From: Parcubacteria group bacterium Gr01-1014_3
Lineage (GTDB): Bacteria; Patescibacteriota; Minisyncoccia; UBA6257; WO2-44-18
Reading direction: 5' to 3'
NCBI GenBank assembly: GCA_007376445.1
Contig: VMGF01000001.1
Location: forward strand, 114,875 to 178,874
Length of the DNA: 64,000 nt
A model generated the notes under the pieces. That model saw only the letters and a list, made by a program, of their open reading frames with translations, was not told where the DNA came from and made no database searches. The first letter of the stretch is position 1. Each line of letters starts with the position of its first letter. The translations under genes were made by a program, and so were the position numbers. Shown piece by piece: positions 5,030 to 34,979 of the stretch.

Positions 5030-5758
5030 TTAGTTACCGGACTTTTTACGCTCTTGCGCCTTAGAATATCGCTCGTGAGTCCCGATATCGTGCACGTAAT
5101 CGTCTACTCCGGCCAGATATCCATAATATTTTTCACCCTTGGAAATAATATCCGGTAAAAGATCGTGGTCAATCGCGCAGACACCGCTATCCGGAATATA
5201 TTTCAATATTTTTTTATTAAATAAATAAATTCCTTCCATGCCAAAATAATCGGTTTTTGGCATTTCTTTGTGTGGTTTTCGATAGATAGCAGTAAAGCGC
5301 ATATCTTTATCTAAAACTGCCAAATCGGAATCGTGCGGGTGGTCGTTTTTAGCTATCACATGAACACCAATCGCCGGTTGTTTCTTTTCGTAATAAGCCC
5401 GCATGTCTGAATAATTAATTTCATTAAACACATCTCCATAAACCACAAAAAATGAATCCCTTAGATATTTTTCAAATTTCTTTAAACCACCGGCGGTGCC
5501 AAGCAATTCGGGTTCGTAGGAATAAGTGATTTTCACGCCGAATTTAGAACCATCGCCAAAATAATCTTTAATAACCTCCGGTAAATAATGAAGATTGATA
5601 TAAAAATCATTAACGCCGTGTTCTTTGAGGTGTTCGATCTGATGTAGCAAAAGCGGCTTCCCCTCGATGGGTACCATGACCTTTGGAACTTTGTCAGTTA
5701 TCGGTCTTAGCCTTGTACCTAAACCGGCGCACATAATGACTGCTTGGCTAGTACTCAT
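5030..5758 (-). CDS. Sugar-1-phosphate nucleotidyltransferase (HddC/ManC-like, 242 aa)
   Basis: AVIMCAGLGTRLRPITDKVPKVMVPIEGKPLLLHQIEHL is the NTP_transferase G-loop (GxGTRL). Sits next to the heptose-pathway genes. Confidence 0.8.
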   Translation of the reverse strand: MSTSQAVIMCAGLGTRLRPITDKVPKVMVPIEGKPLLLHQIEHLKEHGVNDFYINLHYLPEVIKDYFGDGSKFGVKITYSYEPELLGTAGGLKKFEKYLRDSFFVVYGDVFNEINYSDMRAYYEKKQPAIGVHVIAKNDHPHDSDLAVLDKDMRFTAIYRKPHKEMPKTDYFGMEGIYLFNKKILKYIPDSGVCAIDHDLLPDIISKGEKYYGYLAGVDDYVHDIGTHERYSKAQERKKSGN

Positions 5759-5804: not shown

Positions 5805-6488
5805 CTACTCTTTTAAAACTCCAGCGTCCTTTAGGAACTGCTTTTGCGTCTTCACGCTCATCTTGTTCATCAAAAGTTCCGGCAGAAACTTGGTCGGAAT
5901 TGTCACGATGTGGGCGCCAGCTTCGTAGGCCCTAAGTACATCATTCTTCTTTCGAATACTGCCAACGATGATCTCCGAAGGCAACCGATACTGATCGATC
6001 AACTCGCGAGTCTTTCGAATCTCGGCTGAACCATCCAGTCCGGTATCCATGATTCGCCGATACAGCAAGCTGACATACTTCGCTCCGGCCTTGGCCGCGG
6101 CGAAAGCCTGAAACCAGGTAATGCAAGCAGTGCAGTTGACCGCGATCTCCTGCTGAGCCAGCTCGCGAATCACGGCTAGGCGATCGGTGCCATCAGTTCC
6201 CAAGATCGGGATCTTAATCGTCGTACCCTCATAATCCAGCTCATTCACGAACGACTTCGCCTGCTTCAGCATTTCATCGGGTGAATCACTGAACACTTCC
6301 ACGCTCAAAGAAATCGGTATGGGAGTGTATTTGCGGATCAATTCAACGATCTGCTTCCAAGCCGTCATCGGCTCAGTAACGCCAGCATTCTTCAATATGG
6401 TCGGATTCGTGGTGATGCCGTCCAAGAGGCCGGTCTTCAGCCAGCGATCGATTTCTTTGAGATCGGCGGTATCTAGAAAGGGCTTCAT
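5805..6488 (-). CDS. Transaldolase / fructose-6-phosphate aldolase family (short Tal/FSA type)
   Basis: MKPFLDTADLKEIDRWLKTGLLDGITTNPTILK is the Tal/FSA N-terminus, and IKIP holds the Schiff-base lysine. Start moved to the internal ATG at 6488, which has a GGAGG Shine-Dalgarno 9 nt upstream and forms an ATGA overlap with the upstream gene's stop. The longer track ORF to 6566 is probably over-extended. Confidence 0.8.
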   Translation of the reverse strand: MKPFLDTADLKEIDRWLKTGLLDGITTNPTILKNAGVTEPMTAWKQIVELIRKYTPIPISLSVEVFSDSPDEMLKQAKSFVNELDYEGTTIKIPILGTDGTDRLAVIRELAQQEIAVNCTACITWFQAFAAAKAGAKYVSLLYRRIMDTGLDGSAEIRKTRELIDQYRLPSEIIVGSIRKKNDVLRAYEAGAHIVTIPTKFLPELLMNKMSVKTQKQFLKDAGVLKE

Positions 6489-7111
6489 TTCTTTTCCTCC
6501 TTTTGGGCGCTCTCCCACTTTCCTTCTTGCAAACGGAATCCGGGGTTGGAAACGATCAGGTGCCAAACGACCGCCTGAAAAGATTCGGCATGCGGCGTAA
6601 CCGTTTCGGGGTTAACAGTTGGAATCAAGACGCAGACATCCGCCACCTGTTTGGTATAACCTCCATCGCGACCCACAATACCGATGATGCGCGCGCCCAC
6701 CTGCTTGGCATACTTAAGAGCTTCCACGATATTCGCGCTGATATTCTTCTCCGCGTTACCACCACCCACCGAAAGAACCAGGATGAGATCTTTTTCGCTA
6801 AGCCAGCTCGTTTGTAGCCAGCGGACGAAAACAGAATTCCAGCCATCGTCATTGGTCCGGGCAGTAATCTCGGAAACATTGTCAGTCGGCGCGTAACTTT
6901 CCATACCGCCCAATTTTCGAAAATCATTGACCGCGTGGCTAGCGTTGCCGGCGCTACCACCAACTCCCAGAATGAACAATCGTCCCCTAGAAGTACGAAC
7001 ATCAATGAGGATTTCGATAGCTTTATGAATTGAATCCTTATCTAACTTTTCAATGATCAACTTGGCTTCTTCCAGATAGGAATCGATGTATTCTTTCGTG
7101 CCGTTGTTCAC
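6485..7111 (-). CDS. SIS-domain sugar phosphate isomerase (GmhA-like sedoheptulose-7-P isomerase, 208 aa)
   Basis: GVGGSAGNASHAVND and LSVGGGNAEKNISAN match the GmhA GNGGS.../STSGNS pattern. Placed next to the transaldolase (S7P source) and the HddA-like kinase. Confidence 0.7.
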   Translation of the reverse strand: MNNGTKEYIDSYLEEAKLIIEKLDKDSIHKAIEILIDVRTSRGRLFILGVGGSAGNASHAVNDFRKLGGMESYAPTDNVSEITARTNDDGWNSVFVRWLQTSWLSEKDLILVLSVGGGNAEKNISANIVEALKYAKQVGARIIGIVGRDGGYTKQVADVCVLIPTVNPETVTPHAESFQAVVWHLIVSNPGFRLQEGKWESAQKEEKK

Positions 7112-7216: not shown

Positions 7217-8080
7217 CTACTTTCTCCAGTTTTTACCTCTATCTTCCGGCTTAACTCGGCGTAGATTATAAATTTCAGAATTCGCGATCTCTTCCAGATG
7301 ATTCGGAAAATCCCGGTAGTTGTCCCAGACAGCGCTTAAATACTTACCGGTAATTCCAGAGGCTTCCGGAGAGGCCAGCCAGACAATCAATTCAGCCGCC
7401 TTGTCCGGAGACTGGCCACCGTCTTGGTTTTGCTTGACCGATCGCTCCCAAATTTCCTTGCCTACCTTATCCGGTCCAGCGGCTAAAAGATCATCAAGGA
7501 ACTTGGTGTTAACCGCGCCAGGCGCGATAGCGTTCACGAAAATATTGTATTCTTTCAGCTCAGCCGAAAGACTCTCAGTGAAACCAACCACCGCGCGTTT
7601 AGACGCGCTATAGGCGGTGAAGTTTGGTAACGCTCCATCGCCGCCGCCGGAAAAATTCACGATCCGGCCTCCACCACCCTTCTTCATAAATGGAATCGCC
7701 AGTTGACACATCGCGACCGTGCCCAGAAAGTTGATGGCAATCGTCTGCATCCATTTTTCAAAATCATTATCTTCCAATGGTCCAATCGGGCCATAAATGC
7801 CAGCCGCGTTCACCAGTACGTCGAAATGACCCTGCCAGGTAGTCTCGATAAAAGCGCGGATGGCTTTTATGTCTTTAGGATTTGAAACATCGCCATCATA
7901 AATAAAAACAGCGGAGCCAAGCTCAGTTTTGGCCTTCTTTAGTTCATCAAGAGTGCGTGAGATGAGAAGCACCCGGTCGCCATTTTTGACGAATGCTTCG
8001 GCAACCGCTCGGCCAATTCCGCGCGCGCCACCCGTAATTACGATATACCTTGGTGTCTCCATGTGATTGTTCCTTTCCAA
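7217..8080 (-). CDS. Short-chain dehydrogenase/reductase (SDR), 287 aa
   Basis: ITGGARGIGRAVAEAF Rossmann TGxxxGIG motif and YSASKRA catalytic YxxxK motif. Confidence 0.85.
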   Translation of the reverse strand: MERNNHMETPRYIVITGGARGIGRAVAEAFVKNGDRVLLISRTLDELKKAKTELGSAVFIYDGDVSNPKDIKAIRAFIETTWQGHFDVLVNAAGIYGPIGPLEDNDFEKWMQTIAINFLGTVAMCQLAIPFMKKGGGGRIVNFSGGGDGALPNFTAYSASKRAVVGFTESLSAELKEYNIFVNAIAPGAVNTKFLDDLLAAGPDKVGKEIWERSVKQNQDGGQSPDKAAELIVWLASPEASGITGKYLSAVWDNYRDFPNHLEEIANSEIYNLRRVKPEDRGKNWRK

Positions 8081-8093
8081 TGAGCCGCAAGTA

Positions 8094-9230
8094 TTATAAT
8101 ACGACTTTGGTTTTTTTCAATGCCGCCTGGCTTTTAGCCAAATATTCTTTCGCCTCCGGATACTGCTTAACCCATCCCACATACTGGTCAACATTATCCT
8201 TAAGCGTGTATTTCGGCTTCCACCCAAGCTTTTTGAGCTTAGAAATATCCATGATCTGATGACGCGGGGTGTTTAACCGGTAAGATCCTTTGATTTCGGG
8301 ATCGTATTTGGTTTTTGTGGCCTTCGCGACCAATTTAGCTAAATCCAAAACGGTGGTAATTTCTCCGCTTCCAATATTGAAAGCTTCGTAATTCGCCCGA
8401 GAATCTTCCAGTAATTTTAGGTGGGCGCTCGTGACGTCTTTAACGTTCACGAAATCGCGGATCTGATTACCGTCCTCATGCACGCTCAACGTCTGACCCG
8501 ATAAAGACTGGATCGAAAAGGCCCGCAAAGCTCCAGAATAAAAATTACGAAAAGATTGCCTAGGGCCATGAACAATCGAATAGCGCACGGCCACCGAAGG
8601 AATGCTGTAAATTTTTCCGAGAAGTAAGGCAGTCCGCTCGGCCGCCATCTTAGATACTCCGTAAGGAATTTGCGGGCGTAGCTCATCGCTTTCAAATTCC
8701 GGAACCGGCTCCATCGCCGATCCATCATGCGGGCACTTCATCTCCCACTCCCGCTTTTTGAGCTGGCCTTCCTCGCGCGGCGCCATGTAAATAATTCCAT
8801 GCTTTTTACACTTGTACTTCCCTTCTCCATAAACTGATTGCGAAGAAGTGACGATAATTTTTTTCACCGGCAATTTCTTGGACGTGATTATTTCATAAAG
8901 CATGGCAGTGCTGGCCGTATTGGTTAGGAAATAAGTGCTGAAATCCATATGGTAATCCATATGCGCCGCTAGGTGAAAAATATAGTCCGTGCCAGTCATC
9001 GCCTTTTCAAGATCGGCTCGATTACGCACATCACCCTTCATAAATTCAGCTTTTTGATTGAACCACTCCGGCAACTGGTTGTTGTGGGTCGGCGGAGCAA
9101 GATTATCTAGTACGCGGACACGATAGCCAGCCTCGAGCAGGCCATCGACAAGATGCGAGCCAATAAAACCGGCGCCACCGGTAACTAAAACTAATCCCTT
9201 ATCTTTTTTTGGTTTACTTGTTTTGGGCAT
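8094..9230 (-). CDS. NAD-dependent nucleotide-sugar epimerase/dehydratase (extended SDR) with a Cys-containing insertion, 378 aa
   Basis: VLVTGGAGFIGSHLVDGLL N-terminus and YGVSK catalytic motif. Carries an about 40-aa insert (KCKKHGIIYMAPREEGQLKKREWEMKCPHDGS). Confidence 0.8.
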   Translation of the reverse strand: MPKTSKPKKDKGLVLVTGGAGFIGSHLVDGLLEAGYRVRVLDNLAPPTHNNQLPEWFNQKAEFMKGDVRNRADLEKAMTGTDYIFHLAAHMDYHMDFSTYFLTNTASTAMLYEIITSKKLPVKKIIVTSSQSVYGEGKYKCKKHGIIYMAPREEGQLKKREWEMKCPHDGSAMEPVPEFESDELRPQIPYGVSKMAAERTALLLGKIYSIPSVAVRYSIVHGPRQSFRNFYSGALRAFSIQSLSGQTLSVHEDGNQIRDFVNVKDVTSAHLKLLEDSRANYEAFNIGSGEITTVLDLAKLVAKATKTKYDPEIKGSYRLNTPRHQIMDISKLKKLGWKPKYTLKDNVDQYVGWVKQYPEAKEYLAKSQAALKKTKVVL

Positions 9231-10233
9231 AGATTTTTTCGACTATCTTAAGCATTTCATAAGCATCCTTGCCGGAAACCGCCGGCTCACGATTTTCTTT
9301 GATGGCTGAAACGAATTCCGCGATCAATCTTTCTAAAGAAGTTTCTGATGTTTCCTTATCAAATACAACCACCTGCTCGGTCGGCGGGTTACGGAACTCC
9401 GGATCTCGCTTACCAATGATCAAACGCTCCGGACCAACATATCGATTGTCCAATCCTTCGATCGTAAGATAGCCGTCCGATCCCATGATCTCAAAAGAGT
9501 GCACCCATTTCCACTGTGTCCAGCTCACATGGATCGAAGCTACACGTCCATCTTGGGTTTTTAAAAGGGCGAAACCATTATCCTCCACTCCATTTTTCCA
9601 AAATAAAGTCGGTGTAAAACCAGTCACTTCCGGAAATTCTCCTAAGAATTGCCTGGATAGATCGATCATATGGCTTCCCTGATCCAGCAACTCGCCGCCA
9701 CCGCTCATTTCTTTATTGAATCTCCATTCGTTGGCATAGCCTGGGCGTCCACCAAAACCATATCTGGCGCGCACAAAAAGAATCTGCCCGATCTCGCCTT
9801 TGTCAACTAACTCTTTAGCCATTAAAAAAGCCGGATGATAACGATGATTGAATCCAATCATGTATTTCGCGCCAGTCTTCTCAGCCATCTTGATTGCCTG
9901 GGCAATCTCAACGCTACTAACACCTCCCGGCTTTTCGGAAAGAACATGCTTATTATTTTTCAAAGCCTCGATGGCAATTTCGGTTAAAAATTTATGCGGC
10001 GTAACAATAACTACCGCGTCCACATCCGCGCTCTTAACAACTTCACGCCAATCCAATTCGGCGCGACAGTCTTTTATCTCTTTGGCTAAGACTTCGGCTC
10101 TTGGCTTATCCTGATCGGAAATACAAACCAAAGAAACATTCGAAGAATGTTTAAGCGCGTGCGCCCATTTGGTGCCCATGCCACCGGCGCCAATTAGCGC
10201 GACCTTGATTGTGCCCGAATTGATCATTACCAC
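9214..10233 (-). CDS. Gfo/Idh/MocA family oxidoreductase, 339 aa
   Basis: KVALIGAGGMGTKWAHAL N-terminal Rossmann fold and the EKP motif (HVLSEKP). Confidence 0.85.
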   Translation of the reverse strand: MVMINSGTIKVALIGAGGMGTKWAHALKHSSNVSLVCISDQDKPRAEVLAKEIKDCRAELDWREVVKSADVDAVVIVTPHKFLTEIAIEALKNNKHVLSEKPGGVSSVEIAQAIKMAEKTGAKYMIGFNHRYHPAFLMAKELVDKGEIGQILFVRARYGFGGRPGYANEWRFNKEMSGGGELLDQGSHMIDLSRQFLGEFPEVTGFTPTLFWKNGVEDNGFALLKTQDGRVASIHVSWTQWKWVHSFEIMGSDGYLTIEGLDNRYVGPERLIIGKRDPEFRNPPTEQVVVFDKETSETSLERLIAEFVSAIKENREPAVSGKDAYEMLKIVEKIYAQNK

Positions 10234-10272
10234 GATACTATAACAGAAAAGTTAGTTTTTTCAATCTTACCG

Positions 10273-10341
10273 CCTCCCTTTTCGCTACACGCAAAAGGGA
10301 GGGGTGCTGCGCAAATAAAAAACCCCGAACATTGTTCGGGG
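10273..10341 (-). terminator. Rho-independent terminator (10323..10341 hairpin plus U-tract) and a second 10-bp-stem hairpin (10273..10302)
   Basis: ccccgaa-cattg-ttcgggg is followed on the minus strand by TTTTTTATTT. Upstream hairpin is cctccctttt-(10 nt loop)-aaaagggagg. Located 7 nt after the stop of the 10349..11278 gene. Confidence 0.6.
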
Positions 10342-10348
10342 GGGGTCT

Positions 10349-11278
10349 TTATATATTGTACTTCTTCTTCATTCTGGCGATGAATTCTTCCAGGGCATAT
10401 GGGCTTCCCTTAAATTTCAGTTCTGCCGCGGCCTTGGACATAAAGCCACACATCACATGCGGCTCCAAATAAGAAGCCTGGATTGATATTGTGGGTCCAC
10501 CAATCATCTCGGCAATTTCTGAAGTCGAATAATGCTTACCGGAGCTGATATTAAAAGCATCTCCAAGTAGTGGCGCCGCAATACGCATTGCTTGAAGATT
10601 CGCGACAACTACGTCGTCCACGCTAACAACCGATCGTTGCTGTTGGCCATCGCCAATGATAGTAAGTGGTTGGCTATGAATCCTGGCATACAAAAATCTT
10701 TCGACAACACCCGGGAAAGGAACCTTGCCGCTAACGGCCAACTCCGATCCAAAAACATTGTAATAGCGTAGCGAAACCGTATCCACTCCTTCATAGCTGG
10801 CAAATTGCCGACAAAGGACTTCACCAAAGTACTTGGTAGATCCATAGGCATTCATCGGTTTTGGCGAATCAGTCTCTGTCGCAATCGCCCTGTCGTTCTC
10901 TCCATACACTGACGCCGAAGCCGAATATACAACTCGCCCTACGCCATTCTTCTTAGCCGCCAGAAGTACGTTCATCGTACCCTTAACATTCACATCGATT
11001 GCCAAATCTGGGTTTTTAATGCAATCCGTAATCTTCGAATAAGCCGCGCAATGAAACACGCCATCAACTCCAGCGAAACAATCTTCTAACGCCTTTCTGT
11101 CACGAACGTCCGCGACCCAGAAATCAACGCGACTCTGATCGATCTTAGGCTCGTCAAGATAAGAACTGCGTGGATTTCCGACATAGCAAATCACCACCTC
11201 GTTATCCGGCTGCTCAAGAAGTTTTCTCACAATCGCGGAACCAATGAACCCAGCGCCGCCGGTGACCGCGTATCTCAT
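10349..11278 (-). CDS. NAD-dependent nucleotide-sugar epimerase/reductase (SDR family), 309 aa
   Basis: MRYAVTGGAGFIGSAIVRKLL N-terminus and YGSTK catalytic motif. Confidence 0.8.
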   Translation of the reverse strand: MRYAVTGGAGFIGSAIVRKLLEQPDNEVVICYVGNPRSSYLDEPKIDQSRVDFWVADVRDRKALEDCFAGVDGVFHCAAYSKITDCIKNPDLAIDVNVKGTMNVLLAAKKNGVGRVVYSASASVYGENDRAIATETDSPKPMNAYGSTKYFGEVLCRQFASYEGVDTVSLRYYNVFGSELAVSGKVPFPGVVERFLYARIHSQPLTIIGDGQQQRSVVSVDDVVVANLQAMRIAAPLLGDAFNISSGKHYSTSEIAEMIGGPTISIQASYLEPHVMCGFMSKAAAELKFKGSPYALEEFIARMKKKYNI

Positions 11279-11889
11279 CAGATGCCCTCCGAAATAAAGT
11301 TTGAGTAATAAGTACTGTCTTCGATCAACAGCGCGGCGAAGATGCCGGCCGCCGTTGCCAAATCCCGAATCGCTCCACTTCCAACCATTTGCAGAACCTC
11401 ATCTCGGGTACAAATCAAACACTCGACACCTTGAAGCTCATCTTGCTTGGCCTGATCGGTAAGCTGACAATCCAAAGCGACGTACAGTCGGCAAGGATTG
11501 TCGACTCGGTCAGAAAGCGGATAAAACTTATCGCCGATTTTCTTAATCGACAACGGAAGATAACCAACTTCTTCTTTCATTTCTCGAATGACCGAGAAGT
11601 ACCAGCCATCATCGCTAGGTTCGCGACTACCGGCCACGCCTTCGATCGTAACTCCCGCGACCGGCTTAAATTGCCTGGTCAAGATAAATCTTCCGTCCCG
11701 CAAACGAGGAATCACCATCACATACCCACCATTTTTTGCGGTAAGACGGAGAAAATTTTTCATCTCTTTGCCATTATCAAATTTCACGTCAACCAAATCT
11801 GCCGTCACCCACTTATCATCATGGATAACTTGCCGAACCGAAATCTCAGCGCTTTTGGCGATACCCAAGTATCCTCCTTTGGTTATCAA
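11278..11889 (-). CDS. NUDIX hydrolase, 203 aa
   Basis: Nudix box GVAGSREPSDDGWYFSVIREMKEEVGY (Gx5Ex7REUxEExGU). Confidence 0.75.
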   Translation of the reverse strand: MITKGGYLGIAKSAEISVRQVIHDDKWVTADLVDVKFDNGKEMKNFLRLTAKNGGYVMVIPRLRDGRFILTRQFKPVAGVTIEGVAGSREPSDDGWYFSVIREMKEEVGYLPLSIKKIGDKFYPLSDRVDNPCRLYVALDCQLTDQAKQDELQGVECLICTRDEVLQMVGSGAIRDLATAAGIFAALLIEDSTYYSNFISEGI

Positions 11890-11949
11890 GAAACCGCTAT
11901 TGTTATACCAGAAAAATGATTTTTTTTCAACTTTATAAAAAACCCGCCC

Positions 11950-13491
11950 TTAGGGGGCGGGGGTCGCGGGATTCGTAGAATCCCAACGATTTCCAATATT
12001 CTTCTTCAAGCGTTCAGCGACATAGGCCGGCGGGTTAACCGTTCGCCAGGCCCATTCACGGAGCTCAAGAACTCGCTCTGGTGAGATAACGGTATTTTTC
12101 AATACCGGCCGGTGCCAGTTCATCGTGTCCGGATCGAAATTCGGATCAAGATGACCTTTCTGAATCGCGTAATCGTACAGCTGACATCCCGGGAACGGAA
12201 TTGGAATAAAGAACGAACAGTACTTGGCGCCGGCATCCACCGCTCGCTTCGCGTACTCCACGCTCTTCATCAGTTCTTCCTCAGTCTCATCCGGAAATCC
12301 GATCATCATGTTCACGGGGCAAGTAATTCCAACCCGGGAAGCAATCCGAATCATCTCGATAATGTCCATTGTCGGAAGATGCAGTTTGCCGGTAGAGTAC
12401 TTATCCAGAATCCGCTGTGAGCCGGATTCAATCGGGAAAACAATCTGATCAAAACCGGCATCACACAAGAGACGAAGATAGTCCTCGTCGGTATCGAGTT
12501 TTCCGGTCAACTTATTGCGAACCAAGAAATGAACCAGATTCACGCCGTTCACGTCAGCGATGCGCAGCCCCGCGTTAAGAAGATAGGTGAAAATTTCTTT
12601 CACTCTCGCCTTCTTGGCAAGCAAGCTGTCGTCTTCAAAATAAATCTTTTGCACGCCGAGGCTCTTCAGGGTCTCGATCTCTTTGATCACCCTGGGCACC
12701 GACTTCACGCGCAAGTTGCCGATATCTTCCTTGAATTCACGCTCTTTCGAGATATGGCAGTAGGCGCACTTAAACGGGCAGCCACGCGAAGTCATAATCG
12801 GCGCGTACATCATCTTTTCTTCCAAGACCACATCGCCATGTGGTGAAAGGATCTTGGCGTACTTTTTCAGCGGCGACTTATGCCAAGCCGGAATCGGGAG
12901 TTCATCCAGATCCATGCTGGTATCGCCAGACTGGACGGGATTGCCCATCACTCGGCCGTTGTGCATAAACAAAGTCCCACTGACATCATCGATCGATTCG
13001 CCCTTTGCCCACTTCTCGATCAAGCGGACGATGATCTTTTCGCCTTCGGTCGTACAAATAACATCAACGAGCCCGTTGCTCAAAAATCGCTCGGGCATGT
13101 TGCGCGCGTTCACCCCGCCGCTGATGACCAGCATTTCGGGATTCACTTCCTTAGCGATCTTGGCGACCAGGAGCGCCATTCGCGTCTGGGGCGTAAAATT
13201 CGAGTGCACTCCGACGACATTGTAGCCACCCTTAGCGATCACCTCGCGAATCCGTTCGTCCGGCATACCGATGCGGATCAGTCCGTTCTGTTGCGGAATA
13301 CCTTTGTAAAAAGTGTCTTCGAGCGTGTCCTGATCAGTACCAACCGACGCATCCAGGATATCTGCTTCAATACCGGCTCGCTCTAACGCGGCGGCCAGAT
13401 ACAAAGGACCAAGCGATCCATCGGGACGAGCTGTCTCGGTCGGATTCAGCTGATTTGGCGGATAAATGAGCAGAACTTTCGGTGTTTTCAC
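11950..13491 (-). CDS. B12-binding (cobalamin-dependent) radical SAM enzyme, class B, 513 aa
   Basis: N-terminal B12-binding-like domain (VLLIYPP...GPLYLAAALERAGIEADILDA) followed by the radical SAM CxxxCxxC motif (TSRGCPFKCAYCH). Confidence 0.8.
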   Translation of the reverse strand: MKTPKVLLIYPPNQLNPTETARPDGSLGPLYLAAALERAGIEADILDASVGTDQDTLEDTFYKGIPQQNGLIRIGMPDERIREVIAKGGYNVVGVHSNFTPQTRMALLVAKIAKEVNPEMLVISGGVNARNMPERFLSNGLVDVICTTEGEKIIVRLIEKWAKGESIDDVSGTLFMHNGRVMGNPVQSGDTSMDLDELPIPAWHKSPLKKYAKILSPHGDVVLEEKMMYAPIMTSRGCPFKCAYCHISKEREFKEDIGNLRVKSVPRVIKEIETLKSLGVQKIYFEDDSLLAKKARVKEIFTYLLNAGLRIADVNGVNLVHFLVRNKLTGKLDTDEDYLRLLCDAGFDQIVFPIESGSQRILDKYSTGKLHLPTMDIIEMIRIASRVGITCPVNMMIGFPDETEEELMKSVEYAKRAVDAGAKYCSFFIPIPFPGCQLYDYAIQKGHLDPNFDPDTMNWHRPVLKNTVISPERVLELREWAWRTVNPPAYVAERLKKNIGNRWDSTNPATPAP

Positions 13492-13553
13492 TTGCTACCT
13501 CGTGTTTATTGTAAAAGAAACCACCAATACTATATAAAAAAAGACTGCTTATG

Positions 13554-14555
13554 TCAAAGCAGTCTTTGGAAGTCTGGTTCCGTGGCGACAGTTCCCTGAT
13601 AATCGATTTCGAGCGGAATTCTCGGCCAACCCCCCATCGCCATAGCCTCAGTGACATTCCGAATTGATTCATCATCAGGGCAATAGAAGAGGAAGTAACC
13701 ACCTCCACCGGCGCCGATATTCTTTCCGCCTAAAGCCCCGTTGGCCTTAGCGATTTCATACATCAGATCAAATTTTTCGTTCGAAATCTTATTGGACATC
13801 TGCTTCTTCAGTCGCCAGTGTTCGTCCATCAACTTTCCAAAGGCATCCATATCTCCAGCATTAAATGCCTGCAAGATTGCCCTGCCAATCTCCTTGGTCA
13901 TTTCTTTCAGATCGTAAGCCTTATTATTATCCTGATCGGCCAAAATTTTCTGGCTTGGACCTTCTCGCTTTTCACCGGTGAAGAAAAATAAGGTGTGCTT
14001 CAGAAATTTATTTACCGTGTTCTCTGAAAAGTTTGGCCTGGAAACATCAACCGTTCCGTCCTTCTTTATATAAAGAACTGTAAAGCCACCACTTGCCGCA
14101 AGATAAGGATCCTGCTTGCCATCATGCGCCCAGAGACCACCAAGCCGCTGAGTTATCTCAAACGCTTTCTCGGCCAGAAACGATGTATCCTTGCATTCAC
14201 CCTTAAGGGTGTAAAGGCCGTTTAACAATCCAACCGCGCAAGCTCCCGAAGAACCGAGACCGGTCCCAGCAGGAGAATCGGCGTTGAAAGTAACGCTGAT
14301 AGATTTATCGATACCCACAATCCTCAAAGCTTCACGACCAATATCGTGCTTCAGCTGATCAACCGAATCAACCAGTTCCTGAATACGATAATTAAACTGA
14401 ATCCGGCCATCCATGCGAAGCGGCTTGATCATGATGTGCATGTAGCACTTGATCGCCACGCCAAAAATGAATCCGCCGTACTTTTCGTAATAAGAAGGGA
14501 TGTCAGTCGAACCGCCGCCAAGTGAGATTCGGAACGGGGTCTGGGTAAGTATCAC
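13554..14555 (-). CDS. GHMP sugar kinase, D-glycero-D-manno-heptose-7-phosphate kinase (HddA)-like, 333 aa
   Basis: N-terminal TPFRISLGGGSTD motif and C-terminal GAGGGGYFLFYC glycine-rich motif, typical of the HddA/GHMP family. Confidence 0.75.
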   Translation of the reverse strand: MILTQTPFRISLGGGSTDIPSYYEKYGGFIFGVAIKCYMHIMIKPLRMDGRIQFNYRIQELVDSVDQLKHDIGREALRIVGIDKSISVTFNADSPAGTGLGSSGACAVGLLNGLYTLKGECKDTSFLAEKAFEITQRLGGLWAHDGKQDPYLAASGGFTVLYIKKDGTVDVSRPNFSENTVNKFLKHTLFFFTGEKREGPSQKILADQDNNKAYDLKEMTKEIGRAILQAFNAGDMDAFGKLMDEHWRLKKQMSNKISNEKFDLMYEIAKANGALGGKNIGAGGGGYFLFYCPDDESIRNVTEAMAMGGWPRIPLEIDYQGTVATEPDFQRLL

Positions 14556-14610
14556 CTTATCACCTCCTGGGGTTTTTATGTGTGAAAAAACTACCTAGAT
14601 AATAGATGAA

Positions 14611-15418: not shown

Positions 15419-17266
15419 CTAATGCTTTATTTTATATATTTCTACCGCCTCGTTTCTGTATACTAATTCTAAGTTATTTTCCCGGTGTAGGTCTGCTCGG
15501 CCAAACTGACGCTCCCAGGGTCCATAAAAAGCGTAATCAGCCTCAATATTTTTCCAATCTAGCACAATTTTCTTATAACGGTCCATCAATTCTTTGATTT
15601 TCCATTCTGGCATACCCCGCTTACCGAGATTTTCCGGATCCACAAAAGAAAGTTGATAAAGATACAGCTTGGCGTCCACGATATTGCTCAGACCATATGT
15701 TGTCCCGCAGCTCTCGATGCATGTAATACCATGCCCGGACCTCAAGCGCTTCTCGATTATGCCGGAAGGAATCTTAAATAAAGCGTTCGCGGTAAGGAAT
15801 CTCTCTTCAATTTCATGATTCGATTCAACCGTTACGCCTCCCCATGGTAGAAATGGGCGACCAGCAGTGAAAGCCGCGGTGTAGATCGAGGTTAAAAGCG
15901 ATGGCGAAATAATCCTTGGTTCACCGGGAATATTATTTTCAATCCATTTCCAGGAAGTCAGAATCGATTCGGGAAGCATGTGTTCTTCAATGACCTTAGT
16001 AGAAGGATTGATAAATCTAGTAATGTTGTTTACTTTTTTGACGATTAAGCTGGCCATAAGAGCCATGAAGATCAAAAAGACTATTTTTGCCGGTTTTTGT
16101 CCTATGAATTCAATCCTTCTGATCCCTTCTCGTACAAGATGCATCAAAATTACAAAAAGTGGCGGATTAATTGCCCTCGGCCAATGGTCAGAGTGTGGCA
16201 CATAGCCAATCACTAGCTGGATATTCCAAATCACAAAGGCGGCCGCTAGGATGCTCCAGTATAAAACCGCCCAGTCTCGCTGCTTCAGTATTCGCCAAAA
16301 AACTATGAAAATTAACGCGGCAACCATGGCATACACAAGATAATGAGGCCAAACATTCCAGCGAAAAAATCTACCGAATTCAAGACCAAGCCGATTAATC
16401 AGGTCCTGGCCAGAAGCCAAATGAGAAACTCTAAAATAATTAATAAAGTATGGAATGCTCGTAAAAAGCATTGATCCTAATAACGCCGCATAACTCTTAA
16501 CGCGATTTTTATCACCATGAAAAAAGAAAAGAGTTGCCGTAAAACCAATGCCTAAAACTACCGCCCAAAAAACCCAGATATGGAAATAAGTGTAAAAAAG
16601 CAGTCCTGCGACAACGCCTGATACAATTCCCAATTTTAAACTTGGGCTTTTCCAAAACCAAAAAAATAAAGCAATTGCGGGTAAGTAAACTAGGTGAGTA
16701 AGTAATGGCTGATCGATTCGCGCGTAAAAAAGCAGAGATAAAGCGGTCTGAACTCCAGGATAAAAATTTTTTAATACAATATTGGCAAAATCGCCAAATC
16801 CAAAAAATGCTTCTGTCATTACTAACGACATTGGCGTTAAAATTCCGATCAGACCTAAGATGATGGCCCAGAAATTGTCTTTTTGAAAAATTATTCGCCC
16901 AATAGAGTAAAAAGCTAAAAAAAGAATGGCGGGCAGAAAAAAGCTGGCAAATAAATACGCCGTATTCACATCGCCCACTAGAGCGATAAAGATTCCTAAA
17001 ATAAGCGGAGGTAATGGCGGATAAATGTTCGGCAAAATGTGGCTAAAAAAAAGATCCCCAGGCGGAAAATGACCGTCGGCTACCTCACGAGCAAATTGGA
17101 TGTAAGCGTCTCCCCCGTCATGAAGATTGGTAAGTTGGGAGAGGATAAATGTCCGGCCACTGTTTTCTACCGCCCTTTTTATAAACAACTGGGGCGCGAC
17201 ATATAAAATACCGACAGCGATCGCGAGCAATCCTACGACGACAACCTGCCGATTAAACCGGCTCAT
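15419..17266 (-). CDS. GT-C fold polyprenyl-phosphate-sugar-dependent glycosyltransferase (ArnT/PMT-like), 615 aa polytopic membrane protein
   Basis: First extracytoplasmic loop carries DGGDAYIQFAREVADG, matching the GT-C/PMT DExxYxxxAREM motif. At least 12 predicted TM helices plus a C-terminal soluble domain. Start codon overlaps the stop of the GtrB-like GT2. Confidence 0.6.
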   Translation of the reverse strand: MSRFNRQVVVVGLLAIAVGILYVAPQLFIKRAVENSGRTFILSQLTNLHDGGDAYIQFAREVADGHFPPGDLFFSHILPNIYPPLPPLILGIFIALVGDVNTAYLFASFFLPAILFLAFYSIGRIIFQKDNFWAIILGLIGILTPMSLVMTEAFFGFGDFANIVLKNFYPGVQTALSLLFYARIDQPLLTHLVYLPAIALFFWFWKSPSLKLGIVSGVVAGLLFYTYFHIWVFWAVVLGIGFTATLFFFHGDKNRVKSYAALLGSMLFTSIPYFINYFRVSHLASGQDLINRLGLEFGRFFRWNVWPHYLVYAMVAALIFIVFWRILKQRDWAVLYWSILAAAFVIWNIQLVIGYVPHSDHWPRAINPPLFVILMHLVREGIRRIEFIGQKPAKIVFLIFMALMASLIVKKVNNITRFINPSTKVIEEHMLPESILTSWKWIENNIPGEPRIISPSLLTSIYTAAFTAGRPFLPWGGVTVESNHEIEERFLTANALFKIPSGIIEKRLRSGHGITCIESCGTTYGLSNIVDAKLYLYQLSFVDPENLGKRGMPEWKIKELMDRYKKIVLDWKNIEADYAFYGPWERQFGRADLHRENNLELVYRNEAVEIYKIKH

Positions 17267-18171
17267 CTCTCAATAATTTCTTTAATAAAATAAGGATGGG
17301 CTCGCTCTGTCTCAAAATAAATTCGCCACAGTAATTCAGCTAACAAGCCCAGCATGAACATTAAAAATCCGACAATGGCGAACATCGTGGCCATGATCGG
17401 AAGCGGGGGTTGTCCGAAGAAAACCGCCAAAACTACTGACCAAGCCGTGGCCACGCCGGCAATACCCCAGGCAAGCAAACCCAAAACGCTGAAAAATACC
17501 ATCGGGCGAGTATTCGGGTGTAAAAAGCGCACTACTAATAAATCGGCGATTGCCTTAACACCGGCCGTGAAATGATGCTTGGACATACCAGACTTTCGTT
17601 CATGATGAGTAACCTCGACTTCTGTTACCTTCGCGCCGCGAAAAAAAAGTGATACCGCTAAAAATACATGCTGGACTCCGAATAAATTCATTCCTTCTAA
17701 AAACTTACGCCGGTATGCTTTTAACGCGCAGGCATGGTCATGTAATGGCAATCCGCTGATTGTCCGAGTCAGCCAATTAGCCAACCGGGAATGGATTTTT
17801 CGGCCAAGACTGTCATGCCGATCCTTACGCCAACCGGACACCACGTCATAACCCTCTTTCATTTTCGCCAATAATTTTGGAATATCCCGAGGATCATTCT
17901 GCATATCTCCATCCATAATGACGACGATATCTCCTTTCGCGGCTTTGAGACCGGCGTCTAAGGCCAAGGTTTGACCGAAATTCTTCGGAAACACTATGAT
18001 CTTTATCGGGGACAAAGACTTTAAAATATCGAGCGTGCCGTCTTCAGATCCATTATCAACCACAATAATCTCGTATGGTTCGCCGATTTTATCTAAAGTC
18101 TCCTTATTCAAACGATGCAACTCTTTTACGTTGCCCGCCTCATTATATGTGGGAAAAACAACAGAAATCAT
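17263..18171 (-). CDS. GT2 polyprenol-phosphate glycosyltransferase (GtrB/ArnC/DPM1-like) with two C-terminal TM helices, 302 aa
   Basis: ISVVFPTYNEAGNV...IIVVDNGSEDGT...DGDMQNDP (DxD), and a C-terminal membrane-anchor pair. Confidence 0.85.
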   Translation of the reverse strand: MISVVFPTYNEAGNVKELHRLNKETLDKIGEPYEIIVVDNGSEDGTLDILKSLSPIKIIVFPKNFGQTLALDAGLKAAKGDIVVIMDGDMQNDPRDIPKLLAKMKEGYDVVSGWRKDRHDSLGRKIHSRLANWLTRTISGLPLHDHACALKAYRRKFLEGMNLFGVQHVFLAVSLFFRGAKVTEVEVTHHERKSGMSKHHFTAGVKAIADLLVVRFLHPNTRPMVFFSVLGLLAWGIAGVATAWSVVLAVFFGQPPLPIMATMFAIVGFLMFMLGLLAELLWRIYFETERAHPYFIKEIIER

Positions 18172-32534: not shown

Positions 32535-33173
32535 TTGAGCATGAAAAGCCTTCTTGAGAACGCGTTGATAAAAAAAATCGCGAATATTCCAGTGGTCTGG
32601 AATGCCGCTCAAAGTCTTATCGGGGCAAATCAGTGGAAAGCTCGGTTGTACCCATCTGTTTTCAAGCAAAAAGGCGGAACGCTCCTTGATTTTGGGTGTT
32701 CAGGCGGAAACGTGACCGCCCTATTCCTCGACTTTGACTATTTTGGCGTGGACGTTGATCGGCAGGCGATCCAGGCCGCGCGCAACAAGTTTAAGCAGTA
32801 CCCCAACGTAAAATTCTTTGATCTCGACATTATTAAAAGCGGTTTCAAGAAAAACTTTTTTGATCACATACTCTTCGCGGGGACGGCGCACCACGTCACT
32901 AATGACGAATTAAGAAAAATAATTGAGATTCTCATGGAGAATCTCAGGGTAGGTGGCCAGCTTCATTTTTTTGACCCTGTTCACCAGCCGAAAGACAACT
33001 GGATGACCAGATTTATTATCCGTTCTGACCAGGGGAAAAATGTCCGTACCGAGGAATCTTACAGGGGCTTCTTTTCACCCGACAAATATAAAATAAACGA
33101 ATGGAGAGTTTGCCCCAGCCCAGATCGATTCATCAAGTTTCCGGATTTTTTATATATCAATATTACTAAATAG
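32535..33173 (+). CDS. Class I SAM-dependent methyltransferase-like protein, 212 aa
   Basis: LLDFGCSGGNVTALF (motif I-like) ... LRVGGQLHFFDP. Confidence 0.6.
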   Translation: MSMKSLLENALIKKIANIPVVWNAAQSLIGANQWKARLYPSVFKQKGGTLLDFGCSGGNVTALFLDFDYFGVDVDRQAIQAARNKFKQYPNVKFFDLDIIKSGFKKNFFDHILFAGTAHHVTNDELRKIIEILMENLRVGGQLHFFDPVHQPKDNWMTRFIIRSDQGKNVRTEESYRGFFSPDKYKINEWRVCPSPDRFIKFPDFLYINITK

Positions 33174-34182
33174 TCTGAGAATACCGCTTGTACCAACTAA
33201 TCGTCTCCTTTAGTCCATCTTCGATTCCATATTGGGGTTTCCACCCCAGCACGCGATTTGATTTAGACGAATCAAGGTATTGATTAAGAATTTCGTTTTT
33301 AGCGTTATTCAAGATGATTGGTTTCAGGTCCTGTTTATCCATGAGTTTGGAAATGGCATTCACGACCTCGAGTACCCGTAAAGGATTATTATTTCCAAAA
33401 TTAAACGCTTCTCCTGTAATTTTTCCATTCGTTAAATTTTCCGCGAGACACAGGTAAGCCGACACCGCGTCCTGCACATAAATATAATCGCGCAGATATG
33501 AACCATCACTTCTAAGTTCGATGGGTTTCCCCTGAAGCATAGTTTGAATTGTTCCGGGGATGAGCCGTGAGAAATGAAGGTCGCCTCCCCCATAGATATT
33601 CCCGCATCGCGCTAGCGTGGTAGAAAGTTTGTAAACCTGCGCGTACATGCGGGTGATCTGGTCGGCGCAGCTTTTTGAACAATCATATGGATGATACTCA
33701 CCATTAAGTGAAAAATCTTCGGTGTATGGAAGCGTTTTCTGGGGTCCATAGGCTTTATCGGAAGAAGCCACGATCACATGAACACCATGATGTTTTCGAG
33801 CTTCTTCGAGTACCCGCACCGTTCCCATGATATTGGTATCAAGCGCCTCGGCGGGATCGGCTAAAACCTCCCCGACAAGAGCGGAGGCCGCCAAATGAAA
33901 AACTGTGTCAATTTTATGAGTCGTAAAAAGAGTTTGTAGTAGCTTGGTGTCGCGCACATCTCCTTGTACATACAAAACCTTTTTAAGTAAGTTGTCGTAC
34001 GGCTCTCCTAGAAAACGTTTCGGTTTTAGATCAAGAGACACCACGCCGGCGCCCTGAACCGCCAATTCATAATTCAACCATGAACCCACAAAACCGGCTC
34101 CGCCGGTCACTAATACCTGCTTATTTTTCCAGAATTTATTGGTCGTGGCATTCATTCGTGTACCTATCGCCAATTTTTCCAA
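33166..34182 (-). CDS. rfbG: CDP-glucose 4,6-dehydratase, 338 aa
   Basis: FWKNKQVLVTGGAGFVGSWL N-terminus (characteristic FWxGKxVxVTG-TGFKGSWL), YDCSK catalytic motif, and collinear similarity to Salmonella RfbG. Confidence 0.85.
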   Translation of the reverse strand: MEKLAIGTRMNATTNKFWKNKQVLVTGGAGFVGSWLNYELAVQGAGVVSLDLKPKRFLGEPYDNLLKKVLYVQGDVRDTKLLQTLFTTHKIDTVFHLAASALVGEVLADPAEALDTNIMGTVRVLEEARKHHGVHVIVASSDKAYGPQKTLPYTEDFSLNGEYHPYDCSKSCADQITRMYAQVYKLSTTLARCGNIYGGGDLHFSRLIPGTIQTMLQGKPIELRSDGSYLRDYIYVQDAVSAYLCLAENLTNGKITGEAFNFGNNNPLRVLEVVNAISKLMDKQDLKPIILNNAKNEILNQYLDSSKSNRVLGWKPQYGIEDGLKETISWYKRYSQTI

Positions 34183-34979
34183 ACAGCGGTGCCATTATTC
34201 CACTCTTTGTTTAAAAGCTCCATATCACGAACGGTGTCCATGCACTGCCAGTATCCATTGTGACAATAAACCGCGAGCTGGGACTCCGCCGCCAACTTTG
34301 GCAACACATCACGCTCAAAATTAAGCCCCTCTCCGTCAGTCAGGCGATCCAGCACGGCCCGATTGCACACAAAAAATCCGCCATTGATATAGTTGTCCTG
34401 TAGTTGCGGCTTCTCCGTAAATTGCACGTCGGAATCATGGATATTGATCTGGCCGAACCTGGCCGGAGGGCGAACACCGGTAATGGTTACCATCTTGCCC
34501 TGGGCGCGGTGAAAGGCGACCAGATCATCAATATTCACATCAGCCACGCCGTCGCCATATGTAAGTAAAAACACATCATTGGTTATATATGAAGCGATAC
34601 GCTTGAGGCGCGCTCCCGTTTCAGAATCTAGGCCGGTTCCGGCGATCGTCACGCGCCATTTTTCTTCGGCGGGGACATGCATCGTCACATTCCGATTCTC
34701 TTTGGTAAAGTCGACGGTAAAATCACCCTGATACATAGGGTAATTGAAAAAATAATCTTTGATTTTTTCTCCTTTATAGCCGGTCGGAAGGATAAAGTTC
34801 GAAAAACCAAAAGAATTATAAATCTTCATGATGTGCCAGAGGATCGGGCGCTCTCCGATCCGCACCAATGGCTTCGGGATGGTTTCGGTCTCTTCCCTCA
34901 GACGAGTACCTTTCCCCCCGCACAAGATCACTACGGGAATTTTGGACTTATCGATTCCTTTTTGAGATGGAGTATCCAT
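34164..34979 (-). CDS. rfbF: Glucose-1-phosphate cytidylyltransferase, 271 aa
   Basis: VVILCGGKGTRLREETETIPKPLVRIGERPILWHIMKIYNSFGF...YGDGVAD...INGGFFV...GYWQCMDTVRD, matching RfbF along its whole length. Confidence 0.9.
   Translation of the reverse strand: MDTPSQKGIDKSKIPVVILCGGKGTRLREETETIPKPLVRIGERPILWHIMKIYNSFGFSNFILPTGYKGEKIKDYFFNYPMYQGDFTVDFTKENRNVTMHVPAEEKWRVTIAGTGLDSETGARLKRIASYITNDVFLLTYGDGVADVNIDDLVAFHRAQGKMVTITGVRPPARFGQINIHDSDVQFTEKPQLQDNYINGGFFVCNRAVLDRLTDGEGLNFERDVLPKLAAESQLAVYCHNGYWQCMDTVRDMELLNKEWNNGTAVWKNWR

Follow-up and report, generated by a model that had tools for sequence, protein, structure and literature searches.

A B12-domain radical SAM protein family conserved in heptose-type sugar cassettes of Patescibacteria, with a possible role in tailoring surface sugars

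Background

Characterised class B radical SAM enzymes are mostly C-methyltransferases, several with carbohydrate substrates, and GenK, GenD1 and MoeK5 are listed as Csp3 methyltransferases (PMC12931638). According to the same 2026 review, non-methylating members are not distinguishable from methylases by structure, and AprD4 of apramycin biosynthesis, which binds no cobalamin, and ArsL illustrate that a Rossmann-like domain is no guarantee of cobalamin binding (PMC12931638). Here we analyse a 64,000-nucleotide stretch of the metagenome-assembled genome of the CPR organism Parcubacteria group bacterium Gr01-1014_3 (hereafter the window), in which one open reading frame encodes a B12-domain radical SAM protein of an uncharacterised subfamily (hereafter the rSAM; Table 1). 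To our knowledge, class B radical SAM enzymes have so far been linked to sugar modification only in actinomycete antibiotic pathways (GenK, GenD1, MoeK5). The chemistry that we propose for the rSAM, methylation of an unactivated hydroxyl-bearing sugar carbon, would be the same as that of GenK and GenD1 (gentamicin) and MoeK5 (moenomycin), yet these enzymes belong to actinomycete secondary metabolism, whereas the rSAM would serve a cell-surface heptose pathway of CPR and DPANN organisms.

Other described systems resemble this locus in part. In fosfomycin biosynthesis, the substrate of Fom3 carries a nucleotide handle, which a nucleotidyltransferase encoded nearby attaches and a hydrolase subsequently cleaves off. 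Fom3 shares the radical C-methylation scheme proposed here, and its handle logic is paralleled by the order nucleotidyltransferase, rSAM, Nudix, but its substrate is a phosphonate and not a sugar. The SD_1168/Sden_1168 family has the same two-domain architecture as the rSAM, but the context of the rSAM is one of sugar-nucleotide genes rather than phosphonate or phosphinate genes, and no PEP mutase was seen there. The substrate of HpnJ is a sugar and that of OxsB a nucleotide, and the contexts of HpnJ, BchE and OxsB (hopanoid, bacteriochlorophyll and oxetanocin) differ from that of the rSAM.

The enzyme families around the rSAM are those of the GDP-D-glycero-alpha-D-manno-heptose pathway (GmhA/HddA/GmhB/HddC) and of the GDP-octose pathway of lincomycin biosynthesis (LmbR/N/P/K/O). 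In the latter, LmbR builds octulose-8-P and the same enzyme set makes GDP-octose, a logic that the dedicated transaldolase of the cassette described below fits. Neither the GDP-heptose nor the GDP-octose pathway is known to contain a radical SAM enzyme, whereas the rSAM cassette does; the GmhB-like phosphatase of the GDP-heptose pathway, by contrast, is missing within 10 kb in the clade to which the window belongs.

Table 1 Features of the window discussed in this study (counts refer to rSAM orthologue loci; well-flanked loci are defined in the text)
Feature	Position	Strand	Remarks
Sugar-1-phosphate nucleotidyltransferase, like HddC / mannose-1-P guanylyltransferase	5030..5677	-	25/32 well-flanked loci
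TalC/FSA-type transaldolase (TAL), cassette-dedicated	5805..6488	-	28/32 well-flanked loci
SIS_2 / GmhA-like sugar-phosphate isomerase	6485..7111	-	26/32 well-flanked loci
Four NAD(P) oxidoreductases between SIS and Nudix genes	7217..11278	-	SDR 7217-8080; extended SDR 8094-9230; GFO/IDH/MocA 9214-10233; epimerase-type SDR 10349-11278
Nudix hydrolase, like NudF/ADP-ribose pyrophosphatase (NDP-sugar hydrolase type)	11278..11889	-	accessory partner; only 8-10 rSAM loci
GC-rich hairpin and T-run at 3' end of rSAM ORF, terminator-like	11943..11961	-	
Class B (B12-binding domain) radical SAM enzyme (rSAM), uncharacterised subfamily	11950..13491	-	513 aa, GTG start
Radical SAM core, residues 234-413	12253..12792	-	Pfam PF04055, 4.5e-19
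CPFKCAYC, CxxxCxxC [4Fe-4S]/SAM motif	12757..12780	-	C238-x3-C242-x2-C245
B12-binding Rossmann domain, N-terminal, residues 27-156	13024..13413	-	Pfam PF02310, 2.9e-12
Terminator-like hairpin (13567-13540) just upstream of rSAM start, consensus match only	within 13529..13567	-	
Promoter-like site TTGACA-17-TATAGT, overlapping the hairpin upstream of rSAM	13557-13529	-	consensus match only
GHMP anomeric sugar kinase, HddA-like	13554..14555	-	conserved rSAM partner; 26/32 well-flanked loci
Class-I SAM methyltransferase with hydrophobic segment	14611..15405	-	conserved cassette member; 28/32 well-flanked loci
615-aa membrane protein, at least 9 TM helices, GT-C-like topology	15419..17266	-	no Pfam match
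GT2, ArnC/PgfS/AglJ type (polyprenyl-phosphate glycosyltransferase)	17263..18171	-	C-terminal TM helices
RfbG-like CDP-glucose 4,6-dehydratase	33166..34182	-	213.7 bits, below cut-off 278
RfbF, glucose-1-P cytidylyltransferase	34164..34979	-	TIGR02623, 312.5 bits, above cut-off 300.25
NDP-hexose 3-C-methyltransferase, like TylC3, MtmC, TcaB9	35947..37227	-	

The radical SAM protein and its family

An earlier note on this DNA, made from the sequence alone, had described a class B radical SAM enzyme lying between Nudix and HddA-like genes. Both statements are borne out: the protein combines a B12-binding and a Radical_SAM domain, each Pfam match exceeding its gathering score, with a CxxxCxxC motif, and its gene is flanked by the Nudix gene downstream and the GHMP kinase gene upstream. 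A deposited protein from the same organism ('Parcubacteria group bacterium Gr01-1014_3') is 100% identical to it and at least 1266 homologues are found at E<=1e-10, so that we regard it as a real conserved gene. The three motif cysteines are invariant across 28 homologues (alignment A1), and inspection of the sequence revealed no second Cys cluster. The N-terminal domain is conserved to the same degree as the core, with 29 of the 97 invariant positions in the 28-homologue alignment falling in this domain, over 30% of the length of the protein. In the translation, this domain lacks the DxHxxG histidine, and the canonical SxL and GG positions are occupied by the conserved residues S97-N98-F99-T100 and G125-G126. 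The AF2 model of the protein has a pLDDT of 88.9.

The family is large and uncharacterised; most members come from Patescibacteria, with others in DPANN archaea and in SAR11-like Alphaproteobacteria. None of the curated families claims the rSAM, with every HMM score far under its cut-off. The highest-scoring model is that of the SD_1168/Sden_1168 P-methyltransferase (NF038361; 159.5 bits over residues 2-449, cut-off 575), which is also the top curated family in 90 of 90 relatives tested, followed by the non-methylating HpnJ (TIGR03471; 105 bits, cut-off 577.6) and BchE (TIGR02026; 96.8 bits, cut-off 481), which again rank second and third for all relatives tested. None of the libraries searched yielded a match under the name GenK or GenD1, and the related KedN5 and TsrM models reach only 48 bits. 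Grouping with methylating or non-methylating clades, named beforehand as a check on the proposed methylation, is consequently mixed, and we rejected the curated HMMs as a means of calling the chemistry, since a ranking that lies wholly below the cut-offs contains both a methylase (SD_1168) and non-methylases (HpnJ, BchE).

Structural comparison gives a similar picture. The top fold matches are all B12-domain radical SAM enzymes, among which AprD4 (a cobalamin-independent diol dehydratase), MgmA, CysS, TsrM, TokK and OxsB are nearly tied, and the overall fold is common to the solved class B members. In the family profile, the N-terminal domain aligns to the cobalamin-binding OxsB, TokK, CysS and TsrM, but not to AprD4, and the best PDB sequence match is OxsB (3.5e-11). 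Neither sequence nor fold allows methylases to be told apart from dehydratases or rearranging enzymes in this case. A full-text literature search returned no report on this family, or on B12 radical SAM enzymes in heptose pathways.

A conserved heptose-type cassette

We define the heptose-associated rSAM family as orthologues with at least 50% identity that adjoin a TAL, a SIS and an anomeric kinase gene, and the window, where all three are found, belongs to it. Among the 32 orthologue loci for which 7 kb or more of flanking sequence is available on each side (the well-flanked set), kinase, SIS and TAL occur together in 25; individual frequencies are given in Table 1, to which a GmhB-like HAD, present in 23 of the 32, can be added. 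Neither TAL nor SIS was found at any of 23 paralogue loci. Overall, the rSAM is embedded in such cassettes in dozens of ultra-small bacteria and archaea. The usual gene order is nucleotidyltransferase, rSAM, glycosyltransferase, and an orthologue of the GT2 is found at 24 of the 49 rSAM loci, 11 times as the immediate neighbour, and at no control locus. The 615-aa membrane protein family is found at 19-22 rSAM loci versus 0 of 30 control loci, and a DAO-type FAD oxidoreductase at 24 of about 60 versus 0 of 30. For this oxidoreductase no informative solved relative was found, and its absence from the window led us to reject it as an obligate partner. The Nudix hydrolase was similarly rejected, both as an obligate partner and as a substitute for GmhB, since most of the few loci that possess it have the HAD as well. 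A specific tie between the dedicated TAL and the rSAM was also rejected, as many cassettes possess a TAL but no rSAM (23 of 30 control loci).

The rSAM is absent from all 30 control loci of related TAL-containing cassettes. Because related sugar cassettes commonly lack it, the rSAM would carry out an optional tailoring reaction and not belong to the core of the pathway, although this add-on status partly reflects phylogeny, as the control loci stem from other taxa. The block of four oxidoreductases is specific to the clade of the window (L001-L003), and these enzymes probably tailor the sugar further.

The best solved relatives of the GHMP kinase are heptose kinases. 'Heptose' is nevertheless a family-level designation here, because the kinase, isomerase and nucleotidyltransferase all fall far short of the equivalog cut-offs for HddA (NF049969; 116.6 versus 600), GmhA (TIGR00441; 61 versus 209) and HddC (NF049965; 98 versus 300). 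In a nested subclade (L008, L020, L026 and L030), the rSAM adjoins a GT9 heptosyltransferase, a PfkB kinase, a CTP_transf_like nucleotidyltransferase, a HAD, TAL and SIS, which constitute an ADP-heptose route assembled from non-homologous enzymes. On a putative viral contig, a relative of the rSAM lies 2 kb from an HldE-like gene. The placement of the enzyme inside a sugar-nucleotide pathway by the earlier note thus agrees with the positions of its orthologues, in heptose-type cassettes or beside ADP-heptose enzymes and GT9. We considered whether occurrence in both GDP- and ADP-type cassettes points to action before nucleotide activation, but this argument is weakened by the ADP-type loci forming one nested subclade that could have adapted.

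Proposed pathway and alternative explanations

We put the probability at roughly 0.5 that the rSAM is a class B enzyme that tailors a heptose-type nucleotide sugar, most likely by radical C-methylation. What the data show directly is the domain architecture, family membership at the level of the superfamily and the recurrent genomic link with heptose cassettes; substrate, timing, cobalamin use and methyl transfer are inferred. In the proposed pathway, the transaldolase would yield a ketose phosphate, either sedoheptulose-7-P or perhaps a homologue with a longer chain, which the GmhA-like isomerase would convert to an aldose-7-phosphate; the HddA-like kinase would then phosphorylate C1, a phosphatase would take off the distal phosphate, and the HddC-like enzyme would form the NDP-sugar. 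This NDP-sugar would be the form modified by the rSAM, although an earlier intermediate or the lipid-linked sugar may be the substrate instead. The ArnC-like GT2 would pass the modified sugar to polyprenyl phosphate, and the GT-C-like membrane protein, presumed to be an extracytoplasmic transferase, would transfer it to a surface polymer on the external side of the membrane. As to the reaction itself, a 5'-deoxyadenosyl radical would take a hydrogen atom from an unactivated hydroxyl-bearing sugar carbon, e.g. C6 or C7, and methylcobalamin would give the methyl group, with two SAM consumed per turnover. Methylation is favoured because the nearest curated family is a P-methyltransferase (SD_1168) and most characterised class B enzymes are C-methyltransferases.

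A cobalamin-dependent radical enzyme that acts on the heptose without methylating it, by ring contraction or carbocycle formation (HpnJ, OxsB), oxidation or cyclisation (BchE) or epimerisation, appears to us unlikely. The consistent second and third ranks of HpnJ and BchE (105 and 97 bits), the OxsB match of the family profile and the FAD oxidoreductase of many rSAM loci speak for such an enzyme, as does the review's statement that it could not be told from a methylase (PMC12931638), but the curated-family scores are all far under their cut-offs, the best of them belongs to a methyltransferase, the FAD enzyme is absent from the window, and methylation is by far the commonest activity of the class (PMC12931638). 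Less likely still is a cobalamin-independent, AprD4-like radical SAM 1,2-diol dehydratase, which would remove water from a diol of the heptose, either the exocyclic 6,7-diol or one in the ring, and leave a neighbouring SDR or GFO reductase to complete a deoxy-heptose. AprD4 is among the nearly tied fold matches; its sequence alignment to the rSAM is limited to the radical SAM half, and the AprD4 model (NF033070) covers no more than residues 230-453 and yields 41.8 bits, where 500 bits and a full-length alignment would be required.

The choice of substrate bears on a further alternative, in which co-location with heptose genes is incidental and the rSAM acts on the CDP-6-deoxyhexose of RfbF/RfbG, on a different sugar from this locus, or else on the polyprenyl carrier, a protein or a polyol-phosphate polymer. 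The glycan super-cluster, of more than 75 kb, does hold many pathways (TagF-like, NeuB/PseF-like and RfbF/G, with more than 10 glycosyltransferases), sister clades at 40% and 30% identity occur in glycan loci without heptose genes, and the rSAM gene has promoter-like and terminator-like signals of its own. However, the link to heptose genes is confined to the orthologue group, outlasts the exchange of kinase and nucleotidyltransferase for non-homologous enzymes, and spans phyla and a GC range of 22-63%, and we consider an incidental association very improbable. Between the two substrates suggested earlier, heptose is clearly favoured, with 25-28 of the 32 well-flanked loci in heptose-type cassettes, and CDP-6-deoxyhexose is rejected, as only 3 of 71 loci have an RfbF orthologue; judged from these gene neighbourhoods, the rSAM most likely tailors a heptose-type sugar.

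Cobalamin supply and implications

No cobalamin uptake or salvage genes were detected in the window and its 10-kb flanks, and no uptake genes in three related loci, nor was a cobalamin riboswitch found in the same regions. A full-text literature search returned no report on CPR and cobalamin. As far as we know, CPR, DPANN and SAR11-like hosts are not expected to make cobalamin. This, like the lack of uptake and salvage genes around the rSAM, counts against the favoured explanation. If the rSAM is active, its presence implies an unexpected need for scavenged cobalamin in minimal genomes.

It is possible, though we advance this tentatively, that these proteins form a family of cobalamin-dependent radical SAM enzymes that has gone unrecognised and is horizontally mobile, and for which carbon editing of heptoses or octoses is a standard part of cell-surface glycan synthesis, in genome-reduced symbionts and oligotrophs (CPR, DPANN, SAR11-like) and some putative viruses. 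Such editing could be C-methylation, giving a branched or chain-extended sugar (e.g. an 8-deoxy-octose), or a radical rearrangement. Were this so, organisms unable to make B12 would scavenge it for the modification of surface sugars, and the glycans of these hosts would contain a sugar not yet described. The subfamily is distinct and very widespread, and tied to primary cell-envelope sugar synthesis in poorly understood, cell-attaching microbes; the conserved cassette points to a specific candidate substrate for an orphan family of radical SAM enzymes. An active rSAM would predict a new modified surface heptose, a possible marker or interaction determinant.

Other methyltransferases in the window

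The heavy methyl-transfer load attributed to the locus by the earlier note is real, but its count needs correction: in place of nine conventional methyltransferases plus a TylC3-like enzyme, we counted eight class-I methyltransferases (starts 14611, 27972, 28828, 31710, 32535, 40781, 42770 and 43495), and thus nine SAM methyltransferases with the TylC3-like one. The features ascribed to individual members were recovered, with hydrophobic segments in 14611, 27972 and 28828, a Zn-ribbon in 40781 (CPVC...CDNC) and a tandem pair at 42770/43495.

The TylC3-like C-methyltransferase does sit beside rfbF/rfbG, of which RfbF passes its family cut-off and the RfbG-like protein falls below; the RfbF/RfbG-like genes are a separate CDP-hexose module. 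The enzyme has the complete TylC3-type domain set, a Zn-binding Methyltransf_13 domain (Pfam, 1.1e-19), a class-I methyltransferase domain and the C-terminal Methyltransf_14 C-methyltransferase domain (3.3e-42), and matches the mycarose 3-C-methyltransferase 4rv9 over its full length (2e-72), with further matches to KijD1 and TcaB9. One more methyltransferase lies just beyond the left end of the window.

The radical SAM gene and its family

We find that the reading frame regarded in the earlier note as a class B radical SAM (rSAM) enzyme is real, its B12-binding and radical SAM domains both exceeding the Pfam gathering scores, and that it does lie between Nudix and HddA-like kinase genes, here a NudF-like hydrolase and a GHMP kinase. 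The protein contains no second cysteine cluster, and so is not a SPASM/twitch enzyme. Conservation of its N-terminal domain, which holds 29 of the 97 invariant positions, equals that of the catalytic core, and in profile alignments this domain matches those of the cobalamin-binding enzymes OxsB, TokK, CysS and TsrM, whereas the AprD4 alignment is confined to the radical SAM half. The bracketing hairpins, the preceding promoter-like site and a GAGG placed 6 nt ahead of the GTG start (all consensus matches only) point to possible independent expression of the gene inside an otherwise co-directional cluster. Terminator-like hairpins are about twice as numerous in window 4500-21500 as in shuffled sequence (34 vs 18.2 +/- 4.6), and several separate co-directional genes.

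Features of the window discussed in the text
Feature	Position	Strand	Remarks
Nudix hydrolase	11278-11889	-	downstream of rSAM; resembles NudF/ADP-ribose pyrophosphatase
rSAM reading frame	11950-13491	-	513 aa, GTG start
B12-binding domain	residues 27-156		N-terminal; Pfam 2.9e-12
Radical SAM core	residues 234-413		Pfam 4.5e-19
Cluster motif CPFKCAYC	12757-12780	-
Terminator-like hairpin	13567-13540		one side of rSAM gene
Terminator-like hairpin	11961-11943		other side of rSAM gene
Promoter-like site	13557-13529		TTGACA-17-TATAGT, near-consensus
GHMP kinase	13554-14555	-	upstream of rSAM; best solved relatives are heptose kinases 3k85, 4n3o, 4usk
RfbG-like	33166-34182	-
RfbF	34164-34979	-	passes RfbF equivalog
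NDP-hexose 3-C-methyltransferase (TylC3-like)	35947-37227	-	full-length; Methyltransf_13 and Methyltransf_14; 2e-72 to 4rv9

Homologues number at least 1266 at E<=1e-10, the best 120 of which all share 55-76% identity with the window's protein. Searched exhaustively, the 50%-identity representatives yielded 438 proteins at E<=1e-30: the orthologue group collapses to one representative, behind which come about 20 clusters at 36-49% identity and then many paralogues near 30%. No curated family claims the protein: the best NCBIfam model, the SD_1168 P-methyltransferase family, reaches 159.5 bits where its cut-off is 575, followed by HpnJ (105), BchE (97), an uncharacterised methanogen family (86), RiPP C-methyltransferases (80) and PhpK (77 bits), and 90 representative relatives give the same order of models with none reaching a cut-off. 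The enzyme represents an orphan subfamily of class B radical SAM proteins for which the substrate hypothesis is clear and testable, and whose hosts form a biologically interesting set. Scanning one genome per species yielded 71 loci, the majority from Patescibacteria, with others in Pacearchaeota and Woesearchaeota (DPANN), in a Pelagibacteraceae MAG and two similar low-GC alphaproteobacterial MAGs, and in single bins labelled Nitrospirae, Dehalococcoidales and Elusimicrobiota. The GC content of these loci ranges from 22% to 63%, indicating transfer of the family between lineages.

Relatives at 38-47% identity also occur on seven viral-classified contigs (L153-L159); one of these (L153, IMG/VR UViG_3300020171_002227, 4135-9485, putatively viral, GC 31%) bears HNH/homing-endonuclease-like reading frames and, 2 kb upstream of the relative, a gene for an HldE-like bifunctional heptose kinase/adenylyltransferase. 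Among the distant relatives (P0158, P0161, P0165, P0216, P0261; locus L069) are giant proteins, 1000-2300 aa in length, that contain between two and four B12-radical-SAM repeats; a Bacteroidetes locus has six B12-rSAM matches inside 18 kb.

Association with heptose-type cassettes

Reading frames were called in all loci and labelled by the window's proteins, the remainder being clustered and frequent clusters annotated with Pfam. In the orthologue group, whose rSAMs score 500 bits or more, the typical order is NTP-transferase (25/32), rSAM, ArnC-like GT2 (GT2 in 28/32), a GFO/IDH/MocA and/or FAD oxidoreductase, GHMP kinase (26/32), GmhA-like SIS isomerase (26/32), a HAD phosphatase of about 190 aa, transaldolase (28/32) and methyltransferase (28/32), the counts being for the 32 loci flanked by at least 7 kb on either side. 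Frequent neighbours are a GtrA-like protein and a roughly 600-aa membrane protein. Kinase, isomerase and transaldolase occur together in 25 of the 32. A HAD phosphatase is present in 23 of these well-flanked loci, but no GmhB-like one lies within 10 kb in the window's own clade (L001-L003; window 5030-14555), where a Nudix gene adjoins rSAM instead. Neither transaldolase nor isomerase was found in any of 23 loci holding only paralogues (25-42% identity), which are other glycan loci with GT4, GT2, YdjC, SDRs, carbamoyltransferase and an ABC exporter.

In four loci (L008, L020, L026, L030), rSAM is followed by a GT9 heptosyltransferase, HAD (Hydrolase_3), PfkB kinase, transaldolase, CTP_transf_like nucleotidyltransferase and SIS isomerase, a predicted ADP-heptose route (HldA/HldC/GmhB/GmhA logic). 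Their kinase and nucleotidyltransferase are unrelated to the GHMP/NTP_transferase pair, and their rSAMs form one subclade nested within the rest; the association consequently follows the sugar, and not a particular activating enzyme. Even the relative on the putatively viral contig L153, with its HldE-like neighbour, fits this pattern.

For comparison, a profile built from the GHMP kinase of the cassette was used to collect 80 control loci from metagenomes (L073-L152; 34-46% identity), across which the cassette of transaldolase, isomerase, kinase, HAD and NTP-transferase is widespread. The 30 loci of at least 10 kb contain transaldolase in 23, isomerase in 24, HAD in 23 and NTP-transferase in 27, and no orthologous rSAM, only three distant paralogues (about 150 bits), so that rSAM appears to be an added tailoring step. 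Also absent from controls, which come from unknown and probably different phyla so that the contrast may be partly phylogenetic, are the ArnC-like GT2 (24/49 rSAM loci, in 11 directly adjacent to rSAM), the membrane protein family of about 600 aa (22 rSAM loci), the Nudix protein (10) and a DAO-type FAD oxidoreductase (in 24 of some 60 rSAM loci vs 0/30). The last is absent from the window, is often fused to a GFO/IDH/MocA domain (e.g. L025 8853-9962, L043 12528-14510), and yielded no informative solved relative.

Sugar identity and proposed chemistry

Two substrates had been proposed, a heptose and a CDP-6-deoxyhexose. The co-occurrence of kinase, isomerase and transaldolase, together with the ADP-heptose-type loci, strongly supports a link to a heptose-type sugar, at the level of enzyme families; the CDP-6-deoxyhexose is disfavoured, given an RfbF orthologue in only 3 of 71 loci. 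The GmhA-, HddA- and HddC-like proteins fall far below their respective equivalog cut-offs, and the lincomycin GDP-octose pathway draws on the same five families of enzymes, a committed transaldolase among them. To our knowledge, canonical heptose clusters lack a dedicated transaldolase, so the control cassettes may make either a heptose or a longer sugar.

The cassette would supply an NDP-activated higher-carbon aldose. Since the rSAM gene usually lies between nucleotidyltransferase and glycosyltransferase, the NDP-sugar is the most economical substrate; Fom3 and OxsB are class B enzymes with nucleotide-tagged substrates. The window's GT2 is of ArnC/PgfS/AglJ type with C-terminal TM helices, and its membrane protein of 615 aa combines at least 9 TM helices with a soluble C-terminal portion; with the GtrA of other loci, these point to a scheme in which a polyprenyl-phosphate sugar would be made, flipped and transferred by an extracytoplasmic GT-C enzyme. 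C-methylation is the commonest class B activity, and known substrates include carbohydrates (PMC12931638). Given this, and the conserved N-terminal domain, which aligns with cobalamin-binding enzymes but not with AprD4, we favour a cobalamin-dependent C-methyltransferase, methylation being plausible but unproven; by analogy with GenK and Fom3, it would act at a carbon that bears a hydroxyl group, for instance C6 or C7. No particular kinship to GenK or GenD1 emerged from the comparisons with curated families. Searches of the window and of 10 kb on either side of it turned up neither cobalamin-relevant Pfam families nor a cobalamin riboswitch.

Other methyltransferases and the wider glycan locus

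The TylC3-like C-methyltransferase beside rfbF/rfbG was correctly recognised in the earlier note, which also counted nine conventional methyltransferases; we find eight class-I enzymes in the window besides the TylC3-like one, and a further methyltransferase just beyond its left edge. TylC3-like orthologues (at least 289 bits) occur within 10 kb of rSAM in seven loci (L060, L013, L009, L010, L027, L014, L022), following an extended SDR and an epimerase in L010, L013 and L027, and in such genomes the heptose may also be C-methylated by this conventional route.

The glycan locus exceeds 75 kb (window 716-5001, 19098-25730, 44157-45512, and 10 kb to the left, L160). It includes TagF-like glycerophosphotransferases (three in the window, two beyond), a NeuB-like synthase without its C-terminal domain, a PseF-like cytidylyltransferase, and a set of AMP-ligase, ACP, phosphopantetheinyl transferase and GNAT, with FolD and a formyltransferase just outside the window. 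Two adjacent, overlapping reading frames (38765-39340 and 39330-40781, +) jointly cover the full-length GT-C-like membrane family of 15419-17266, and may represent a paralogue that has been split or frameshifted, or else a gene truly made of two pieces. Adjoining the glycosyltransferase block, a 1254-aa protein (54847-58611, -), whose only recognisable domain is peptidoglycan-binding, is possibly a surface protein serving as glycosylation target.
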